NCBI GenBank assembly: GCA_015063795.1
Contig: SVTL01000015.1
Coordinates: forward strand, 1-53,125
Reading direction: 5' to 3'
Length of the DNA stretch: 53,125 bases
DNA from: Oscillospiraceae bacterium
GTDB lineage: Bacteria; Bacillota; Clostridia; Oscillospirales; CAG-272
The notes beneath the pieces were generated by a model. The model did not search any database, had not been told where the DNA came from, and worked only from the letters and a program-made list of their open reading frames with translations. Below are positions 25,178 through 31,096 of this stretch, piece after piece; within the stretch, counting starts at the first letter, position 1, and each line of letters opens with the position of its first letter. A program made the position numbers and the translations under genes.

Positions 25178-26101
25178 TCAATCCATATTACAGACCAAGC
25201 TGTGCTCCACTTCCGATGTATATTTTCTTCCTAAAATATAGTTGATGGATTCCTCCGCTATTTTGTCTGTTGAATAGTCAACGCTTAACACCTTTACGAT
25301 GACATTCTTCAGCACAGAAAGGTTGTCAAATCCCGCGATCTGCACATTTTCGGGATACCCCAAATGCTTCAAAGCTTGAAGCGTATAGTAATCGGTCGCG
25401 CAAATAATCGCCCCGTCATTTGAAAGATCTTCAACATTTGTAACAATGCGATGGCTTTTCCCCAGTGTTCTCATTGCTTGAACAAAGCCGTTCAGCCTCA
25501 TACGCTGTGCGTTGATTGCATGCAGCGGTTTGTTCAAAACGGGAGCAAAATACTGAACATCCCCGGACGGTATCTTCTCGGCAATCGTTTTCGACAAATC
25601 GTACATTGCTTTCTCATCGTCTATCCCAACAAACGGCAGATCAAACAGTCTGTTTCCAATCAAAACGATTGGCTTTTTTAACGAGGTCAGATAATTTTTG
25701 TATTCCTCGTTATCACTGCCCACCGAAAACAAAACGATGCCATCCACGCCGATATAATCAAAATAGTCCAATGCCTTTTTTTCGTTTTTTTCATCTTTTT
25801 CCGAAAACTGAAAGATGATAGAATATCCGAGATTTCTTGCCGCCTTGACCAAACTCATCGCAAGCTTTGAAAAATATTCATTGTAAAGATCAAAAAGAAC
25901 AACACCGATCAGCATCGAGTTCGCTTGATCACCCATTTGAACATTCGGACGGTAATCGTATTCTTTTGCAACTTCAAGAATTCGTGCTTGAGTTTCGGGA
26001 TTGATCCCTTTCCTGTTATGAAGCGCACGGTCCACCGTTCCCTGAGAGACACCGCAAATTCTTGCAAGCTGTGTTGTTGTTATTTTGGAAAAACGTTTCA
26101 T
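25178..26101 (-). CDS. LacI-family transcriptional regulator
   Basis: N-terminal HTH (TTTQLARICGVSQGTVDRALHN) plus a periplasmic-binding-protein-like sugar domain. Overlaps the GH116 stop by 4 nt, suggesting an operon. Confidence 0.85.
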   Translation of the reverse strand: MKRFSKITTTQLARICGVSQGTVDRALHNRKGINPETQARILEVAKEYDYRPNVQMGDQANSMLIGVVLFDLYNEYFSKLAMSLVKAARNLGYSIIFQFSEKDEKNEKKALDYFDYIGVDGIVLFSVGSDNEEYKNYLTSLKKPIVLIGNRLFDLPFVGIDDEKAMYDLSKTIAEKIPSGDVQYFAPVLNKPLHAINAQRMRLNGFVQAMRTLGKSHRIVTNVEDLSNDGAIICATDYYTLQALKHLGYPENVQIAGFDNLSVLKNVIVKVLSVDYSTDKIAEESINYILGRKYTSEVEHSLVCNMD

Positions 26102-28605
26102 TGCAGCTTCAGCTCCTCATGTATTTCAACAGGATCGAAAACGATACAACCGTTAGCAACCTGAAAATCGATGTTTTCTCCGTCAACGGTAACATTTGTG
26201 ATCTGATCGGCGCCGGGTATGGCAATGGAATTCAATACCAAAGCCTTGCCAAAGACAGAAAGAATACACCGCTTCTCATAAAACGCAACACGCCCCCAAC
26301 TGTCACAAGCACTGAACAGATATGTTCCGCTGTTTTGAACAGGAGAAAAGCCGATATGCTTCTTCGTCATATCAAAGTGAAAGCCGCTGTATATGGGCAT
26401 CAAAGCATACGATGCCATCGAACGCGCATAATTGCTTCCGCATTCGATCTCATTCCAAGGATTTCGCTTTTCCCCGTCATACCGATCACGAACCGCTTTG
26501 ACGATGGTTTCGCCCTCGTCAACATAACCATGAGATATCATAAGCCCTGCAAGAGCATATTCAAAGCCTGTCATCGTTTCCTCACAGTAAGGGATCGGTA
26601 TCGCAGGGACCTTGGCACCTTCAGGATATGAGCAGATGATCGTTCCCGCCTCATCGTTCAGCGAGAAATTGCGCCACAGGTTTACAACGTTTCGCATGGA
26701 GGGCTTATAGTTGTTTTGATAAAGATTTTCAAGCGCGTTTTTTTTCTTTTCAAGATCAAAAACACCTTTTCGGCCAATCAGCACAGCATGCCAATCCGCC
26801 AGCATTTGGTCGATCATACAGCCGTCCGCAATCTGGTATTTGATCTCCTTTGCTTCTTCGTTCCAATATTTCTGAACGGCATCATAGCGTTCAAGAATGG
26901 ATTTGTCCGAAAGATCAATGAATTGATGGAAATATCTTCCATTGAAAAGATGCTCGTTCATAAATGCTTTGCCTTTTTCATAAAGCGTTGCGTAAAGGCT
27001 TGCCCGCTTTTCATCGCCAAGAGACCTTGCCATATCGGCACCGCAATCGAGCGCAAGCAGATAAAAGCCCTGAAGCCACGAGCTCGGTCCGAAAAGTTCC
27101 ATATCGAGCGTGTGATGCTGACGTCCCTCGAGAACGCCATCCATATCCGCATCCCACTTATCCGGATTTTCCTCTGACCACGCGTATTCAAGCATTTTGA
27201 AAATGCTCTCTGAATGCTTTTTCAGCCATTCGTTATCGCCTGAAAATTTCCATTCCCGATAGCACTTCAAAACCTCTCCCATCTGTCCGTCTACACAGGC
27301 GCGCTCCGTATACATCTCTCTTTTCAAGGGAAGATTGATGCGGAAGCTCGTAGCACCGCTGTCAAGAAGCGCATACTTCAGCGTATTTTCACGGATGGAA
27401 CGTTCAAGCCTTGGGAACAGATACGGCAGTGCATACGCATAATTCCAAACATGCTGACAGGTCCCGGAGCAGGAGCCGATGGTTTCACCGCAACCCTCCC
27501 ACCCCCAAAACGAGCCATCCTCAAGCCTGAGCACGGTAGGGGACTTGAGAACCGAAAGGTTTGCCGAGATCGCATCCTTGACCGATGCGGGAAGTGTGCA
27601 GGATTGTAAGGTTTTCGCAAACAACTCGGTTTTCCCGCCGAGCCAATCAAAATGTTTAAGCGCATACATGGCTGTCTCAAAGGAAGTTTGAAACTGTGTT
27701 GCGTAATAATTTCGCCACGTGGTACATTCCTCGTTACGCGGCTTCCAGTAGTTATAAGCAACCGGGACATTCCAAGCAATCACAAAACAAACCTTCGCTT
27801 TCGCGCCGGCAGGTATATTCACATACGAAACAACGGTGCCATGATCTCTCTTTGACGGCTCTGAATACCTTCTTTCCGGCATACGGTCTAAGCCGGAAAA
27901 CTGTTTCCAATAGGTGGTACAGCCGTCCATCCAGCCCCCTCTGTACCAATATTCCTGAGCAGAGCTGTCCTTATGATCGGTAAGAACACAAAGATCGAAA
28001 TATCCTTTTTCTTTATCATTCAAGTCGGCGCTTTTTAAGAAAATGCCGCTTACATCCCCCTCTTTTATGGCTTTGTTCAAAGAAGAGGCAGCAGGATTGC
28101 ATACCGTGCAGGCAAGCGAAAAGCGTATGGGTTCATCGGTTATGTTTTCTATTTCCCATTCAAAAAATGCCGACGGAAGACTTGAATGAAAGTCATCATG
28201 CGGTATCAGCGGATTAAAGGCACAAAGGCGTACAACGGCCGGGAAATCCTCGTCGGTGAACGAGAGCTTCGCTATCGGGAAACTGCCGTCAAAGGTCACG
28301 TTTTTGAAATGCGGAAGCCCGGCAAGCGAGTTTGCGCGCGGACCGTAACCAAATCCAACATGGCTACGGCTTAAGCACGGTATGCCCATGAGGTTTTCGA
28401 CAGTATCGCCGTGTAAAACTTTAGCAATATTCTTATTTGAATAGGAGGCCTTAATGGCGAAATGAGAGTATCCGTTTCGCGTGCATTTGCTTGGACGGTT
28501 AAAGATTTCCCAATCCTTCAACTCTCCGTTTCCTGCAAGACCAATGCAGCCTGTTCCAATGCCTCCGAGAGGAAAAGAAATGTTTTTTTTGCCTTGATAG
28601 ATCAT
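26098..28605 (-). CDS. Glycoside hydrolase family 116 (GBA2-type beta-glucosidase/glucosylceramidase-like), 835 aa
   Basis: N-terminal FPLGGIGTGCIGL motif and overall length typical of GH116. Start MIYQG with SD GGAGG. The 51-aa upstream track extension has no SD. Confidence 0.85.
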   Translation of the reverse strand: MIYQGKKNISFPLGGIGTGCIGLAGNGELKDWEIFNRPSKCTRNGYSHFAIKASYSNKNIAKVLHGDTVENLMGIPCLSRSHVGFGYGPRANSLAGLPHFKNVTFDGSFPIAKLSFTDEDFPAVVRLCAFNPLIPHDDFHSSLPSAFFEWEIENITDEPIRFSLACTVCNPAASSLNKAIKEGDVSGIFLKSADLNDKEKGYFDLCVLTDHKDSSAQEYWYRGGWMDGCTTYWKQFSGLDRMPERRYSEPSKRDHGTVVSYVNIPAGAKAKVCFVIAWNVPVAYNYWKPRNEECTTWRNYYATQFQTSFETAMYALKHFDWLGGKTELFAKTLQSCTLPASVKDAISANLSVLKSPTVLRLEDGSFWGWEGCGETIGSCSGTCQHVWNYAYALPYLFPRLERSIRENTLKYALLDSGATSFRINLPLKREMYTERACVDGQMGEVLKCYREWKFSGDNEWLKKHSESIFKMLEYAWSEENPDKWDADMDGVLEGRQHHTLDMELFGPSSWLQGFYLLALDCGADMARSLGDEKRASLYATLYEKGKAFMNEHLFNGRYFHQFIDLSDKSILERYDAVQKYWNEEAKEIKYQIADGCMIDQMLADWHAVLIGRKGVFDLEKKKNALENLYQNNYKPSMRNVVNLWRNFSLNDEAGTIICSYPEGAKVPAIPIPYCEETMTGFEYALAGLMISHGYVDEGETIVKAVRDRYDGEKRNPWNEIECGSNYARSMASYALMPIYSGFHFDMTKKHIGFSPVQNSGTYLFSACDSWGRVAFYEKRCILSVFGKALVLNSIAIPGADQITNVTVDGENIDFQVANGCIVFDPVEIHEELKLQ

Positions 28606-28647
28606 AACTGCCTCCAAAAAAAGATTCTTCGCCTTTATTTTATAATA

Positions 28648-28687
28648 AAAAAAACGCCGTGTCCACTTACACGGCATAATTTTTTTG
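28648..28687. terminator. Bidirectional hairpin terminator (A-run, gccgtg/cacggc, T-run)
   Basis: AAAAAAAA, hairpin gccgtgtccacttacacggc, then TTTTTTT. Confidence 0.6.
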
Positions 28688-28825
28688 AAAAACCATCGAT
28701 TGAACAAACCATGTATCGTTGCGCATATAATCCACTGTCTTCGGATGGATTGTATCATAAAAGCTCAATGTTTACACATAAAAATGAAGCACACGCTGCT
28801 CTCGCAGGAAGCGAAACGATTTTTT

Positions 28826-28943
28826 GCTCTTCTCTTTTCTCAAAAAACGACAATTTGAGAGAAGAGAGAAAATCGAAAAAGTGAAAAGAGAAAAGAACAA
28901 AAAGAAACGACAATCTTCAATTGAAAATTGTCGTTTCTTTTGG
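28826..28943. repeat. Structured direct repeat, copy 1: CT-tract, aacgacaattt, GA-tract, then a perfect 11-bp hairpin gaaacgacaat/attgtcgtttc and a T-run
   Basis: About 85 % identical to copy 2 at 29753-29889. The hairpin at 28904-28937 plus TTTT acts as the terminator of the upstream minus-strand mini-operon. Confidence 0.8.
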
Positions 28944-29006
28944 CTGTGGGCTACGAAAAAGACATTTTCGGCATTTTTGCGTATGACTTCGAACTCTCAC
29001 CGTTCA

Positions 29007-29336
29007 TTAGTTAGTATTTTTGCTGTTGTTAATATGGTTTCCATTTTTATCCCTATTTATAGGAACGGCGGTAAGGGAAAATTGCATGCAATGGCACGGA
29101 CAAGGAATTTCTATTTTATATTTATCTTTTGCACCTCTGTATGTAAAATCGCCGCCACATCTAACCACCTCACACCAAGTATAAATTTCCGCCATAGCTC
29201 GAGGGCAGAAACTTTGAGGCGTTTCGTATTCAAAATGAAAAACGTCTCCCTTTTCTAATCCAAGTCTGCAATTCTTTGCCTCTCCTTCAATTACTTCTAC
29301 ATCAAAAGCCCAATCTTCAACAATCCATTTGTTCAT
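29007..29336 (-). CDS. Small Cys-rich protein, TIGR04076-like (109 aa)
   Basis: Conserved-looking FCPRAMAEIY...GGDF...IPCPCHC Cys pattern. Overlaps the upstream gene by 4 nt (ATGA). The family assignment is from memory only. Confidence 0.5.
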   Translation of the reverse strand: MNKWIVEDWAFDVEVIEGEAKNCRLGLEKGDVFHFEYETPQSFCPRAMAEIYTWCEVVRCGGDFTYRGAKDKYKIEIPCPCHCMQFSLTAVPINRDKNGNHINNSKNTN

Positions 29337-29683
29337 TTGCCGTTCTCCTTTGCAGTATTCAAGGATGCAACAAGCATTCTCTTGATTTCTTCAGCAAGCG
29401 AGAGTAAGCTATCAAAATTATAATTCATAAGCTTTGTGTTTTTAAGAAGTTTCAACCAATAAATACTTTCTCCTGTTTCCTTAAGTGAAATATGAAGCTT
29501 TGATATAAAATCCGCTTTGCTGTTACCGTAAACTGCTTCGTTTATGTTTGCACCTATGCTTGTTGCAGAGCGAAGTAATTGTTTGGCGATAGTTGTATCT
29601 TTTTTTGATTTGGAAAACTCTTCATAAAACAATACGATTTATGTTGCAAAATCGAGAGATTTATCGAGCAAAGGACTGTTCAT
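29333..29683 (-). pseudogene. Four-helix-bundle (23S rRNA IVS / Avd-like) protein gene with an in-frame TAA at codon 15
   Basis: ATG at 29683 with SD GAGGTG. It reads MNSPLLDKSLDFAT-TAA-IVLFYEEFSKSKKDTTIAKQLLRSATSIGANINEA in one continuous frame, with the stop at 29639-29641. This matches the family consensus ...DKSFDFALRIIKLY...LSKQLLRSGTSIGANI. Confidence 0.6.
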
Positions 29684-29703
29684 TCGTCATCACCTCTGAT
29701 TGA

Positions 29704-29732
29704 ATTATACCACAAATTATTATATAATTCAA
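29704..29732 (-). promoter_or_regulatory. Promoter TTGAAT-17-TATAAT for the four-helix-bundle/TIGR04076 mini-operon
   Basis: Read on the minus strand, about 20 nt upstream of the SD. A 7-bp inverted repeat gctttgc-gaa-gcaaagc lies immediately upstream. Confidence 0.55.
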
Positions 29733-29752
29733 CGCTTTGCGAAGCAAAGCTA

Positions 29753-29889
29753 CCTTTTCTCTTCTCTTTTCTCTCTTATCTTTTCTCTGGAAACGACAAT
29801 TTGAGAGAAGAGAGAAAAGTGAAAAGATAAAAGTGAAGAGACCAAAAAGAAACGACAATCTTCTGTCGAAAATTGTCGTTTCTTTTTGG
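29753..29889. repeat. Structured direct repeat, copy 2, immediately 3' of tRNA-Ser; its hairpin and T-run is the tRNA terminator
   Basis: CT-tract, aacgacaattt, GA-tract, then hairpin gaaacgacaat-cttctgtcgaaa-attgtcgtttc at 29849-29882, flanked by an A-run and a T-run. Adjoins the tRNA 3' end. Confidence 0.8.
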
Positions 29890-29977
29890 CGGAGAAGGAG
29901 AGATTCGAACTCTCGCGCCGCTTTCGCGACCTACGCCCTTAGCAGGGGCGCCTCTTCACCAACTTGAGTACTTCTCC
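29887..29977 (-). tRNA. tRNA-Ser (anticodon GCT), class II, CCA encoded
   Basis: Minus strand reads GGAGAAG-TA-CTC-AAGTTGGTGAA-GAG-G-CGCCC-CTGCTAA-GGGCG-[19-nt variable arm]-GAGAG-TTCGAAT-CTCTC-CTTCTCC-G-CCA. Perfect 7-bp acceptor stem. 91 nt. Confidence 0.9.
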
Positions 29978-30016
29978 TTGGTGACGATCCGATCGTCTAT
30001 TCCATTCAGCCTGTAC

Positions 30017-30044
30017 AGTATATCACAAATCCCTGCGTTTTGCA
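30017..30044 (-). promoter_or_regulatory. Promoter TTGCAA-17-TATACT for tRNA-Ser
   Basis: On the minus strand. The -10 box ends about 35 nt before the tRNA 5' end. Confidence 0.55.
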
Positions 30045-30084
30045 ATAGGACAATTATGAATAATATGTTAATATTGAAGAAGAG

Positions 30085-30130
30085 GCGGCCTTACAAAACA
30101 AGATCGGCAAGGAACCGATGTAGCTCCCTG
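30085..30130 (-). terminator. Terminator downstream of hprK (minus strand)
   Basis: Minus strand reads gatcggcaggga...tccttgccgatc followed by ttgttttgt. Confidence 0.5.
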
Positions 30131-30166
30131 CCGATCGATCGTTTCTTTTTCAGCGCCGATTCGCCC

Positions 30167-31096
30167 TTACTGGTTCTGCATCATCTGCTCCATGATGCGC
30201 TTGTTGAACTCCTCGGCGGTGTCATACCCCATCTTCTTCTGACGGTGGTTCATCGCAGCGATCTCCAAAATCACGGCCAGGTTACGGCCGGGCTTAACGG
30301 GGATGGTCAGCGTGGGCACATTGATGCCCATGATGTCGGTATACTCACGGTCGAGGCCGAAGCGGTCATACATCTTGCCCTGAACCCAGTTTTCCAGGTT
30401 GATGATCAGGTCGATCTTCTCGGTCTCCTTGACCGCACCCATACCGAAGATGCGTCCCACATCCACCACGCCGATGCCGCGCAGCTCCACATAATGCCGT
30501 ATGATCTCGGGCGCGGAGCCGACCAGCGTTTTGGCCGACACCTTTTTGATCACGACCGCATCGTCGGCGATCAGACGGTGGCCGCGCTTGACCAGCTCGA
30601 TGGCGGTTTCACTCTTACCCACGCCACTGTCGCCGAGGATCAGGATACCCTCGCCGTAGACCTCCACCAGCACGCCGTGACGGGTGATGCAGGGCGCCAG
30701 GCTCAGATTCAGCGAAGCGATCAATGCGCTCATAAACTCCGACGTATACCGAGGCGTGCGGAGAAGCGGTACACCGAAGCGGGCGGACAGCTCCTTCATA
30801 TCGGGAAAGATTTCCAGATTGTTGGTCACCACCAGAGCGGGAAAGCGGTGGGACAAAAACTGGGAGAGACGGGAATGGCGGGTTGCCATATCGATCTGCG
30901 TGAGATACTCATGCTCGGCATTGCCGATGATCTGAATGCGCGAGGAATCAAAATAATCAAAAAAGCCGGTGAGAGCCAGACCTGAACGGTTGACCTCGGC
31001 GGAATGAACCAGATGCTCGCCCTCGGTCATGGAGATGACCTCCAGCTGAAATTCTTCCACCAATGTATTGACAGCAACGGAACTTTTTTCTTCCAT
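30167..31096 (-). CDS. hprK: HPr kinase/phosphorylase
   Basis: Walker A GDSGVGKSE. Strong similarity to the Bacillus HprK layout. Start MEEKSS chosen by alignment. Alternative starts at 31108 (ATG) and 31120 (GTG). Confidence 0.9.
   Translation of the reverse strand: MEEKSSVAVNTLVEEFQLEVISMTEGEHLVHSAEVNRSGLALTGFFDYFDSSRIQIIGNAEHEYLTQIDMATRHSRLSQFLSHRFPALVVTNNLEIFPDMKELSARFGVPLLRTPRYTSEFMSALIASLNLSLAPCITRHGVLVEVYGEGILILGDSGVGKSETAIELVKRGHRLIADDAVVIKKVSAKTLVGSAPEIIRHYVELRGIGVVDVGRIFGMGAVKETEKIDLIINLENWVQGKMYDRFGLDREYTDIMGINVPTLTIPVKPGRNLAVILEIAAMNHRQKKMGYDTAEEFNKRIMEQMMQNQ

Follow-up and report, generated by a model that had tools for sequence, protein, structure and literature searches.

Four-helix-bundle genes head compact cassettes at the 3′ ends of tRNA and tmRNA genes in gut Clostridia, with a recent nonsense allele in one copy

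Small four-helix-bundle (4HB) proteins of the family PF05635/TIGR02436 have had no known function since they were discovered in the intervening sequences (IVSs) of 23S rRNA genes, and the only characterised relative, Avd, is an adaptor of a reverse transcriptase (RT). Published accounts place family members inside rRNA IVSs and rRNA insertion sequences, including those of Candidate Phyla Radiation (CPR) bacteria (PMC10053308; bioRxiv 10.1101/2024.02.27.582315). In published work the family counts as uncharacterised, with members in 23S rRNA IVSs and CPR rRNA insertion sequences and with Avd as a homolog. Here we analyse a 4HB gene on a 53,125-nt stretch of an Oscillospiraceae genome (assembly GCA_015063795.1, contig SVTL01000015.1, positions 1 to 53,125; the whole stretch is referred to as the window), in which the gene is interrupted by an in-frame stop codon and lies between a tRNA gene and a small cysteine-rich partner gene.

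We show that the 4HB gene is the usual first gene of a family of compact cassettes of ~1 kb in gut Clostridia, in metagenome-assembled genomes (MAGs) of the Oscillospiraceae and Acutalibacteraceae type. Reading away from the tRNA, the cassettes comprise a terminator and a polypyrimidine/polypurine (Py/Pu) hairpin, a palindrome with a promoter and a Shine–Dalgarno (SD) sequence, usually the 4HB gene, a variable gene coupled to it by an ATGA overlap, and a conserved right end. The family is large and sharply defined, and its members abut the CCA of more than 20 tRNAs and of transfer-messenger RNA (tmRNA). We found no prior description of a tRNA or tmRNA linkage of the 4HB family in the searchable literature, and no earlier account of such cassettes in the literature on TIGR04076 and on tRNA- or tmRNA-flanking cassettes; as far as these searches reached, the cassette family is apparently undescribed. 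Its importance is carried by the cassette context and not by the stop codon, which marks one more decaying copy in a decay-prone family. The system bears on what the 4HB protein binds, on the means by which DNA comes to lie exactly between a tRNA and its terminator when the element encodes no recombinase, and on the shuffling of small genes in gut anaerobes.

Cassettes abut the CCA ends of tRNA and tmRNA genes

In the window, a tRNA-Ser(GCT) gene with an encoded CCA (29977–29887, minus strand; ARAGORN; Rfam tRNA model, 56.6 bits) ends 203 nt ahead of the ATG of the 4HB gene. The cassette starts at the base after the CCA, and the junction reads ...CTCCGCCA|AAAAGAAACG. An Rfam search at the gathering threshold returned nothing in the window, the tRNA included; at an E-value threshold only the tRNA was credible, and microRNA and leader-peptide matches over the leader were discarded as low-complexity noise. 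An earlier note on this DNA had seen the 4HB gene and its partner, and had missed the adjacent tRNA-Ser, the leader, the right end and the eroded second leader that make up the surrounding element.

Relatives were collected at one genome per species, which gave 291, and the genome counts reported here come from the best 80 (86–97% identical). These stem from ~76 MAGs, four of which occur twice, labelled Oscillospiraceae, Acutalibacteraceae, Eubacteriales or Clostridia and recovered from ruminant, other animal and human guts. Upstream sequence of at least 320 nt was available for 71 loci, and 70 of these are linked to a tRNA or tmRNA. At 57 loci a tRNA ends 195–215 nt (mode 203) ahead of the ATG, and at 2 more the leader abuts a tRNA and has a later insertion or duplication inside it; at 5 loci the neighbour is a tmRNA gene, at 6 it is a displaced tRNA 3′ fragment, and 1 is unresolved. 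The tRNA-linked loci use 21 isoacceptors, the cassette has the orientation of the tRNA or tmRNA, and the conserved DNA starts at the base after ...CCA in every case. The tmRNAs of these genomes are only ~60% identical to one another. CCA is also encoded by 32 of 33 non-adjacent tRNAs in the same genomes, and we therefore rejected the encoded CCA as a hallmark of an RNA intermediate.

The 4HB gene is coupled to a second gene by ATGA at 69 of the 80 loci, and near-identical 4HB genes overlap different next genes in this way, among them a 142-aa protein of unknown function, a 130-aa GNAT and the 109-aa protein of the window. Between loci with different cargo, homology extends from the tRNA CCA through the leader and the 4HB gene, ends exactly at the ATGA and resumes a few bases past the cargo stop codon. 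An identical 4HB protein was found behind two different tRNAs.

Some loci have additional features. A complete leader with its promoter lies between tRNA-Arg(CCG) and tRNA-Ala(GGC) in L113 (1801–2500), where it may drive a tRNA, and past the tRNA-Ala(GGC) come a variant leader and a 4HB gene. At L100 (899–2500) an insertion of ~1.5 kb splits the −10 box of the leader, and at L062 (2230–2500) a tandem duplication of ~95 nt lies between the promoter and the 4HB gene.

Cargo genes are interchangeable

The cargo gene of the window (29007–29336, minus strand) encodes a Cys-rich protein of 109 aa and is ATGA-coupled to the 4HB gene, with its SD sequence, AAGGAG, inside the C-terminal codons of the latter. 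The resemblance to TIGR04076 that the earlier note proposed was upheld by a profile search, marginally (34.9 bits against a cutoff of 33; E = 1.7 × 10−8; profile positions 5–76 of 91), and the Cys/Trp/GGDF pattern that the note had pointed out is conserved in 40 homologs, in which C23, C44, C55, C60, G61, G62 and F64 are invariant and C79 and P80 nearly so. Two homologs are named 'TIGR04076 family' in the Joint Genome Institute (JGI) annotation, and the identical protein occurs on 16 public contigs. An AlphaFold2 model has a predicted local distance difference test (pLDDT) score of 85.9, and a fold search with it found no relative in the PDB.

The 56 distinct complete cargo proteins found across loci represent at least 17 unrelated families. 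The commonest is a family of 150–168 aa without a Pfam match; others include TIGR04076-like proteins, three GNAT families, pyrophosphatase-like, P-loop kinase-like and signal-peptide or lipoprotein-like proteins, and several unknowns. A T5orf172/GIY-YIG family matches the PADLOC model PDC-S57 at 288 bits. Each of the larger families is found with several different tRNAs, and species differ in the cargo that a given tRNA carries. The cargo is degenerate at 6 of the 80 genome loci.

The earlier note had singled out the 4HB gene and the TIGR04076-like gene as a pair, and the tight ATGA coupling at most loci, together with the toxin- or defence-like nature of some cargo (the GNATs, and the T5orf172 family that matches PDC-S57), would suit a dedicated two-component toxin–antitoxin or defence system with the 4HB protein as antitoxin or regulator. 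The pairing is not specific, however: the TIGR04076-like gene is one of the at least 17 interchangeable families and, at L072, stands directly behind a leader without a 4HB gene. The breadth of the cargo and the leaders that drive TIGR04076-like and other genes directly both argue against a dedicated system, as one 116-aa protein is unlikely to neutralise lipoproteins, pyrophosphatase-like and P-loop kinase-like proteins and unknowns alike. Neither the 4HB protein nor its TIGR04076-like partner matches any PADLOC defence model, and strains in which the 4HB gene is knocked out retain an intact cargo gene. We consider such a system improbable.

In three loci (L133, L141 and L147), a GC-rich, structured-looking sequence (GGGGAGTCGAACGGGTCGGCAGTGAATGACAGCCCGG...) follows the leader promoter where a protein gene would otherwise stand. 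With no match to any Rfam family, it is possibly an RNA cargo.

The leader is structured and conserved

The leader of the window (29684–29886, minus strand; 203 nt) was delimited in an alignment of 68 leaders. It opens with a 15-bp terminator hairpin (arm1, 29882–29868; arm2, 29863–29849; T5, 29848–29844), flanked by an A-tract before and a T-tract after, and continues with a polypyrimidine tract of ~40 nt (29843–29803), a third arm, ATTGTCGTTTC (29800–29790), that is complementary to arm1 (11–14 nt across leaders), and a polypurine tract complementary to the polypyrimidine tract (29788–29753). The two tracts form the long Py/Pu hairpin, of which arm3 is the loop. The palindrome GCTTTGC-TTC-GCAAAGC (29750–29734) and a promoter follow (−35 TTGAAT, 29732–29727; −10 TATAAT, 29709–29704; 10 of 12 with TG in a promoter scan). 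Across loci the promoter is of the sigma-70 type, with a −35 box TTGAAT or TTGATT that abuts the palindrome, an extended −10 box TGnTATAAT and the SD sequence GAGGTG. The minimum free energy of the window leader is −81.7 kcal/mol (z = −9.75), and RNAalifold recovers the Py/Pu helix, the palindrome and the terminator, in which CG>AU/UA changes are compensatory.

Arm1 and arm3 covary through several distinct compensatory changes. An exact complement of at least 10 nt is present in 58 of the 68 leaders; variant stems match their own arm3 over 10–12 nt versus 5–7 nt for their own arm2, and 4 nt is the commonest match to a foreign arm3. We tried and rejected a role for arm3 as a classical antiterminator, which is ruled out by its position downstream of the terminator U-tract.

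Over 1,035 pairs of loci, leader identity is 88.5%, compared with 92.7% at codon positions 1 and 2 of the 4HB gene and 57.8% at position 3, and the leader is more identical than third positions in 99.3% of pairs. The leader is itself under selection. The palindrome (GCTTTGC-N3-GCAAAGC) is nearly invariant across leaders, also in those without a 4HB gene, and looks like an operator-like site for some regulator.

Right ends, arrays and decay

Past the cargo gene, the window carries a conserved right-end segment (GAGAGTTCGAAG...hairpin...GTAGCCCACAGCCA; 28942–29006, minus strand) that ends in CCA. Such segments follow unrelated cargo genes in most loci; they are ~60 nt long and of two types, type 1 being GAGAGTTCGAATTCATACGCAAAA...TTTTTYGTAGCCCATAGCCA with a terminal CCA or ACA. 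A hairpin with a T-tract directly past the right end differs at every locus, and a terminator scan placed the locus-specific intrinsic terminator of the window at 28654–28677 (minus strand). We infer that this terminator is the native one of the tRNA, so that the cassette sits exactly between it and the CCA.

A second leader lies past the right end in the window and in two other loci (L021 and L031). The window copy ('repeat B', 28745–28941, minus strand) is a direct repeat of the first leader, 83–88% identical to it, eroded and without genes: it retains a terminator (28941–28900), a polypyrimidine tract, arm3, a polypurine tract that has been shortened, a palindrome that has degenerated and a promoter remnant whose spacer carries a deletion. 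This copy is what is left of an older cassette on the tRNA-distal side. Two units form an array at L072, where the second leader has a wholly different stem sequence in the same architecture and drives a TIGR04076-like gene without a 4HB gene; L141 and L147 are arrays behind a tmRNA gene. Beyond the window's terminator (28677–28654), a GH116 gene starts at ATG 28605 behind GGAGG. Public gene calls give it 835 aa, and a mechanical 886-aa open reading frame (ORF; 26098–28758) over-extends it.

A metagenome scan with the leader core, which is independent of the protein, yielded 51 loci. About 17 of these have an intact 4HB gene, at least 8–9 have one that is frameshifted, deleted or truncated, and 5 are gene-less elements with the leader fused to the right end; several further leaders drive other genes. 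Disrupted 4HB genes, gene-less elements and degenerate cargo together indicate that decay of cassette genes, the 4HB gene included, is routine. In the gene-less mini-elements (L140, L146, L154, L157 and L171) the leader is kept up to the −35 box, where it is fused to the right-end segment, and those of L146 and L154 sit behind tRNA-Ala(GGC).

At six 'gap' loci, an exact 19–22-nt copy of the local tRNA 3′ end lies just ahead of the leader, and the intact tRNA is 150–350 nt upstream. Such copies were left by another kind of insertion, of the integrase type and into the T-loop, by which a cassette already in place was displaced from its tRNA. The inserts (L082:2121–2297, L096:1995–2298, L102:1943–2298 and L109:417–606) begin with a new terminator and an inverted T-arm box resembling GGGATTCGAACC, and similar boxes lie past native terminators in L038, L055 and L064; the inserts are possibly a second family of mini integrative elements.

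The Rfam motif 'Gut-1 RNA' (RF01706), an orphan of gut metagenomes, consists of arrays of short hairpins split by GUGAAAU. It occurs directly past the cassette right end, often in several copies and in both orientations (L082:3156–3338, L062:3173–3324, L057:3351–3913 and L048:1260–1331), which links it to tRNA-linked cassette loci. We considered and rejected an identity of the right end with Gut-1 RNA, which is a separate hairpin-array repeat of some loci and is absent from the window.

The window carries a recent null allele of the 4HB gene

The 4HB gene of the window (29333–29683, minus strand; 116 codons) starts at ATG 29683 behind the SD sequence GAGGTG (29696–29691) and has its final stop at 29335–29333. 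The translation reads MNSPLLDKSLDFAT, meets an in-frame TAA at codon 15 (29641–29639) and resumes in the same frame (MNSPLLDKSLDFAT, stop, IVLFYEEF...), exactly as the earlier note had described. That note had also claimed a family match across the stop without a frameshift, and the profiles agree: with the stop masked as X, the sequence scores 85.0 bits against PF05635 (cutoff 33.8; profile positions 6–105 of 106) and 97.5 bits against TIGR02436 (cutoff 24). A residual ORF of 99 aa that opens at the TTG of codon 18 (29630–29632), without a preceding SD, scores 75.3 and 87.5 bits, respectively. As this is ~10 bits lower on both profiles, the 14 residues that precede the stop are homologous as well.

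Four assemblies, the window counted, agree on the TAA in long contigs (window, L001, L002/L117 and L116), and L116 is 100% identical to the window over 1,601 nt. Codon 15 and its neighbours read ACA TAA ATC in these contigs versus ACA CAA ATC in L003, L004 and L010, in which the downstream DNA is otherwise identical to that of the TAA contigs. Among 101 close relatives of 116 aa (91–97% identical), 97 have Gln and 4 have Arg as residue 15; the N terminus is conserved, and no stop occurs at this position in any of these full-length proteins. On the comparison of contigs and relatives, the window TAA is shown to be derived by a C>T transition (CAA>TAA, Gln15>stop), a loss-of-function allele that some assemblies carry and others do not. 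The window copy is a family member by descent but a null allele. The mutation is recent, as the gene has neither a second lesion nor any other change relative to the CAA contigs of the same locus. Of the outcomes that the earlier note had listed, a recent nonsense pseudogene is the one supported. The stop codon by itself is ordinary decay of one copy.

That note had allowed for a sequencing error, and a chimeric consensus is conceivable for a multi-copy gene within which assemblies break. We regard an artefact in an otherwise intact gene as very hard to credit, given the four concordant assemblies, the perfect identity over 1.6 kb and the other allele, CAA, only one transition away.

It had likewise suggested that the gene might still function, through a 99-aa protein from TTG 29632 or through readthrough or recoding of the stop. 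The frame past the stop is untouched, and a TTG two codons beyond it makes termination–reinitiation physically possible; the recency of the mutation, however, accounts for the intact frame. The TTG has no SD ahead of it, and its product would lack residues 1–17 and with them 14 of the 23 residues of helix 1, whereas none of the 101 close relatives is truncated, and their N terminus is conserved, with Gln or Arg at position 15. TAA is moreover the commonest stop of the window, ending 25 of 45 long open frames, that of the cargo gene included, and no suppressor tRNA was found in the window, where the sole tRNA is the Ser-GCT. A functional product by either route is quite unlikely. An exact-sequence cluster lookup of the Gln15 and 99-aa proteins was uninformative, as neither is present in the collection. 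The cargo gene, which has an SD of its own, probably remains expressed in the TAA allele.

Contigs that reach this locus from either side end in the region of the leader and the initial ~14–23 codons of the 4HB gene. The cassette family accounts for the breaks of metagenome assemblies at such loci, and we take the breaks at the window locus to mark a second near-identical copy in the same community. Two further contigs cover the window's own locus. In one (L009:2–190), a 4HB gene with only 47% identity precedes the identical cargo and flank; in the other (L008:1–219), 7 substitutions relative to the window all lie within one conversion-like tract of 70 nt. Each suggests that a module was replaced or that gene conversion occurred within the 4HB gene.

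Structure, constraint and relatives of the 4HB protein

An AlphaFold2 model of a 97%-identical relative (pLDDT 92.8) has helices at residues 4–26, 31–52, 56–83 and 90–113, which places the stop in the middle of helix 1. The closest solved relatives are 2RLD (E = 1.9 × 10−23, TM-score 0.83–0.89, 45% identity) and 2GSC (TM-score ~0.8), both of them S23/IVS proteins that do not belong to diversity-generating retroelements (DGRs) and are functionally uncharacterised. Avd of the Bordetella phage DGR is probably a remoter fold relative (Foldseek TM-score 0.65–0.75, E = 0.09–0.4, 13–16% identity), and phmmer found no match between the 4HB protein and Avd (4DWL) at E ≤ 1. The term 'Avd-like' in the earlier note would stand, at most, at the level of the fold; the nearest relatives are the non-DGR proteins. 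Its statement that the locus is not a complete DGR was borne out, as no RT is annotated within ~4 kb in the annotated contexts: no RVT domain occurs among annotated neighbours within ~3–4 kb, the whole 53-kb window not having been scanned protein by protein. There is no pair resembling the template and variable repeats (TR/VR) of a DGR either; the only substantial repeats in 28600–30200 are the two leader copies.

Among 4HB copies, the ratio of nonsynonymous to synonymous substitution rates (dN/dS) is ~0.05 and dS is ~1.3; the protein is strongly constrained and its copies are old. Phage carriage of the element was rejected: the only relatives on viral contigs are two distant ones (36% identity), neither of which lies beside a tRNA.

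Proposed insertion of cassettes and proposed role of the 4HB protein

Overall, we consider it probable that the window holds a recent null 4HB allele within a tRNA-linked cassette family whose members insert and decay. Cassettes would enter between the CCA and the native terminator of the tRNA, with new units on the tRNA-proximal side, and each unit would supply a terminator to the tRNA and borrow the native one for itself. Inserted cassettes would then decay in a birth-and-death process, and the window would show both stages, a live cassette with a freshly knocked-out 4HB gene followed by an eroded older leader. Less firmly, since the cassette itself has no recombinase, insertion would be catalysed in trans. 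By our subjective estimate, the leading candidate for the route, site-specific recombination at the ...CCA|AAAA junction, comes close to an even chance; homologous recombination only is possible but doubtful, and an RNA/RT route, with the junction created by a template switch onto tRNA CCA ends as in Neurospora retroplasmids, has little to recommend it. Hairpin transposition of the IS200/IS605 type is not supported, the left and right hairpins being unrelated in sequence. Cargo modules would be reshuffled as leaders, 4HB genes and right ends undergo homologous exchange or gene conversion, and such reshuffling is what the divergent 4HB gene ahead of identical cargo (L009) and the conversion-like tract (L008) point to.

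We propose that the 4HB protein may be a trans-acting, nucleic-acid-binding accessory factor of the element, as Avd is for DGRs, because of that analogy and because it is the only conserved protein of the cassette. A role in trans would explain the loss of individual copies.

Alternatively, nothing may be mobile: the leader could be the standard tRNA terminator and promoter module of this lineage, and the 4HB–cargo operons ancient residents homogenised by gene conversion. The age of the copies (dS ~1.3), the conversion-like mosaics, the absence from phage contigs and the lack of a recombinase are all in keeping with this. Residence alone does not account for one cargo family behind different tRNAs, one tRNA with different cargo across species or the identical 4HB protein behind two tRNAs. 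In these genomes many tRNAs are followed by unrelated terminators of an ordinary kind, a second, locus-specific terminator always lies past the cassette right end, and eroded array units lie distal to the tRNA. We judge a wholly immobile origin unlikely.

Several points weigh against insertion and recent inactivation as the explanation of the locus. With dS near saturation the copies are old, and ancient placement, vertical descent and gene conversion could account for much of the pattern. No precise empty site, that is, the same tRNA locus with and without a cassette, was found, so that insertion is read from anatomy; in a search for one by way of the exact GH116 and HPr-kinase proteins, contigs without exception have the cassette or end inside it. 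No recombinase or RT was identified, and what ties the 4HB protein to mobility is the Avd analogy and its constant presence in the cassette. The explanation also assigns no role to arm3, whose placement bars classical antitermination. For the allele itself, the CAA calls sit within 10 nt of contig ends, and the JGI samples with TAA (3300029705, 3300022660 and 3300024303) and CAA alleles (3300024269, 3300018494 and 3300024272) may come from related enrichment series, in which case one community may have been sampled.

A broader proposal, which we advance tentatively as a minority possibility, is that these loci represent an unrecognised class of recombinase-less cassettes that target the interval between CCA and terminator of any tRNA or tmRNA and are mobilised in trans, with the 4HB protein as an Avd-like adaptor and the arm1/arm2/arm3 switch as a recombination or processing site. 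If so, PF05635 would gain a unifying role at stable-RNA genes, serving as accessory factor to the elements that occupy rRNA IVSs and the ends of tRNAs and tmRNA.

Comparison with known systems

The 4HB protein probably shares with Avd (4DWL; 8UB7/8UB8/8UBE) the four-helix-bundle superfamily (TM-score 0.65–0.75), as well as a small size and a mildly basic character (isoelectric point 9.1) and, by analogy, it may also be a non-enzymatic adaptor for an enzyme encoded elsewhere. It differs in its low identity and lack of a phmmer match, and in having neither an annotated neighbouring RT nor a TR/VR pair.

Islands and prophages that target tRNA and tmRNA genes use the same class of target in the same orientation, and six cassette loci show the classic 19–22-nt duplication of the tRNA 3′ end, but from a second insert. 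The cassettes are only ~1 kb long, encode no integrase and use more than 20 tRNAs. The tRNA is host-specific up to its CCA, the junction lies after the tRNA and not inside it, and the right end is a constant sequence instead of a copy of the local tRNA end.

Integron cassettes resemble these elements in their small, mostly single-gene cargo of mixed function, in arrays at one entry point with the newest unit apparently nearest to it, and in the structured site that bounds each unit, conserved in structure but variable in sequence. However, no IntI integrase or attI was seen in the annotated neighbourhoods, and integron units are promoterless ORF–attC modules, whereas the tRNA-linked units have their own promoter and usually a conserved first gene. 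Entry is at the CCA end of any tRNA or tmRNA, and the boundaries are not at a GTT core.

T4-type phages reportedly contain regulatory cassettes termed PeSL (promoter-early stem-loop), attributed to Arbiol et al. in 2010, in which a repeated module of terminator stem-loop and promoter is said to flank small novel ORFs and could mediate modular shuffling. Compared with these as reported, the present cassettes are bacterial, chromosomal and bound to tRNA ends, have a longer and more elaborately structured leader, and add a conserved 4HB gene and right end.

The 23S rRNA IVS proteins, or 'S23 ribosomal protein family' (PF05635, TIGR02436; 2RLD, 2GSC), are related by membership in sequence and fold. 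The cassettes described here lie past the 3′ CCA of a tRNA or tmRNA and not inside an rRNA, and have their own promoter and a variable second gene; in both systems, the gene is carried by an element attached to a stable-RNA gene.

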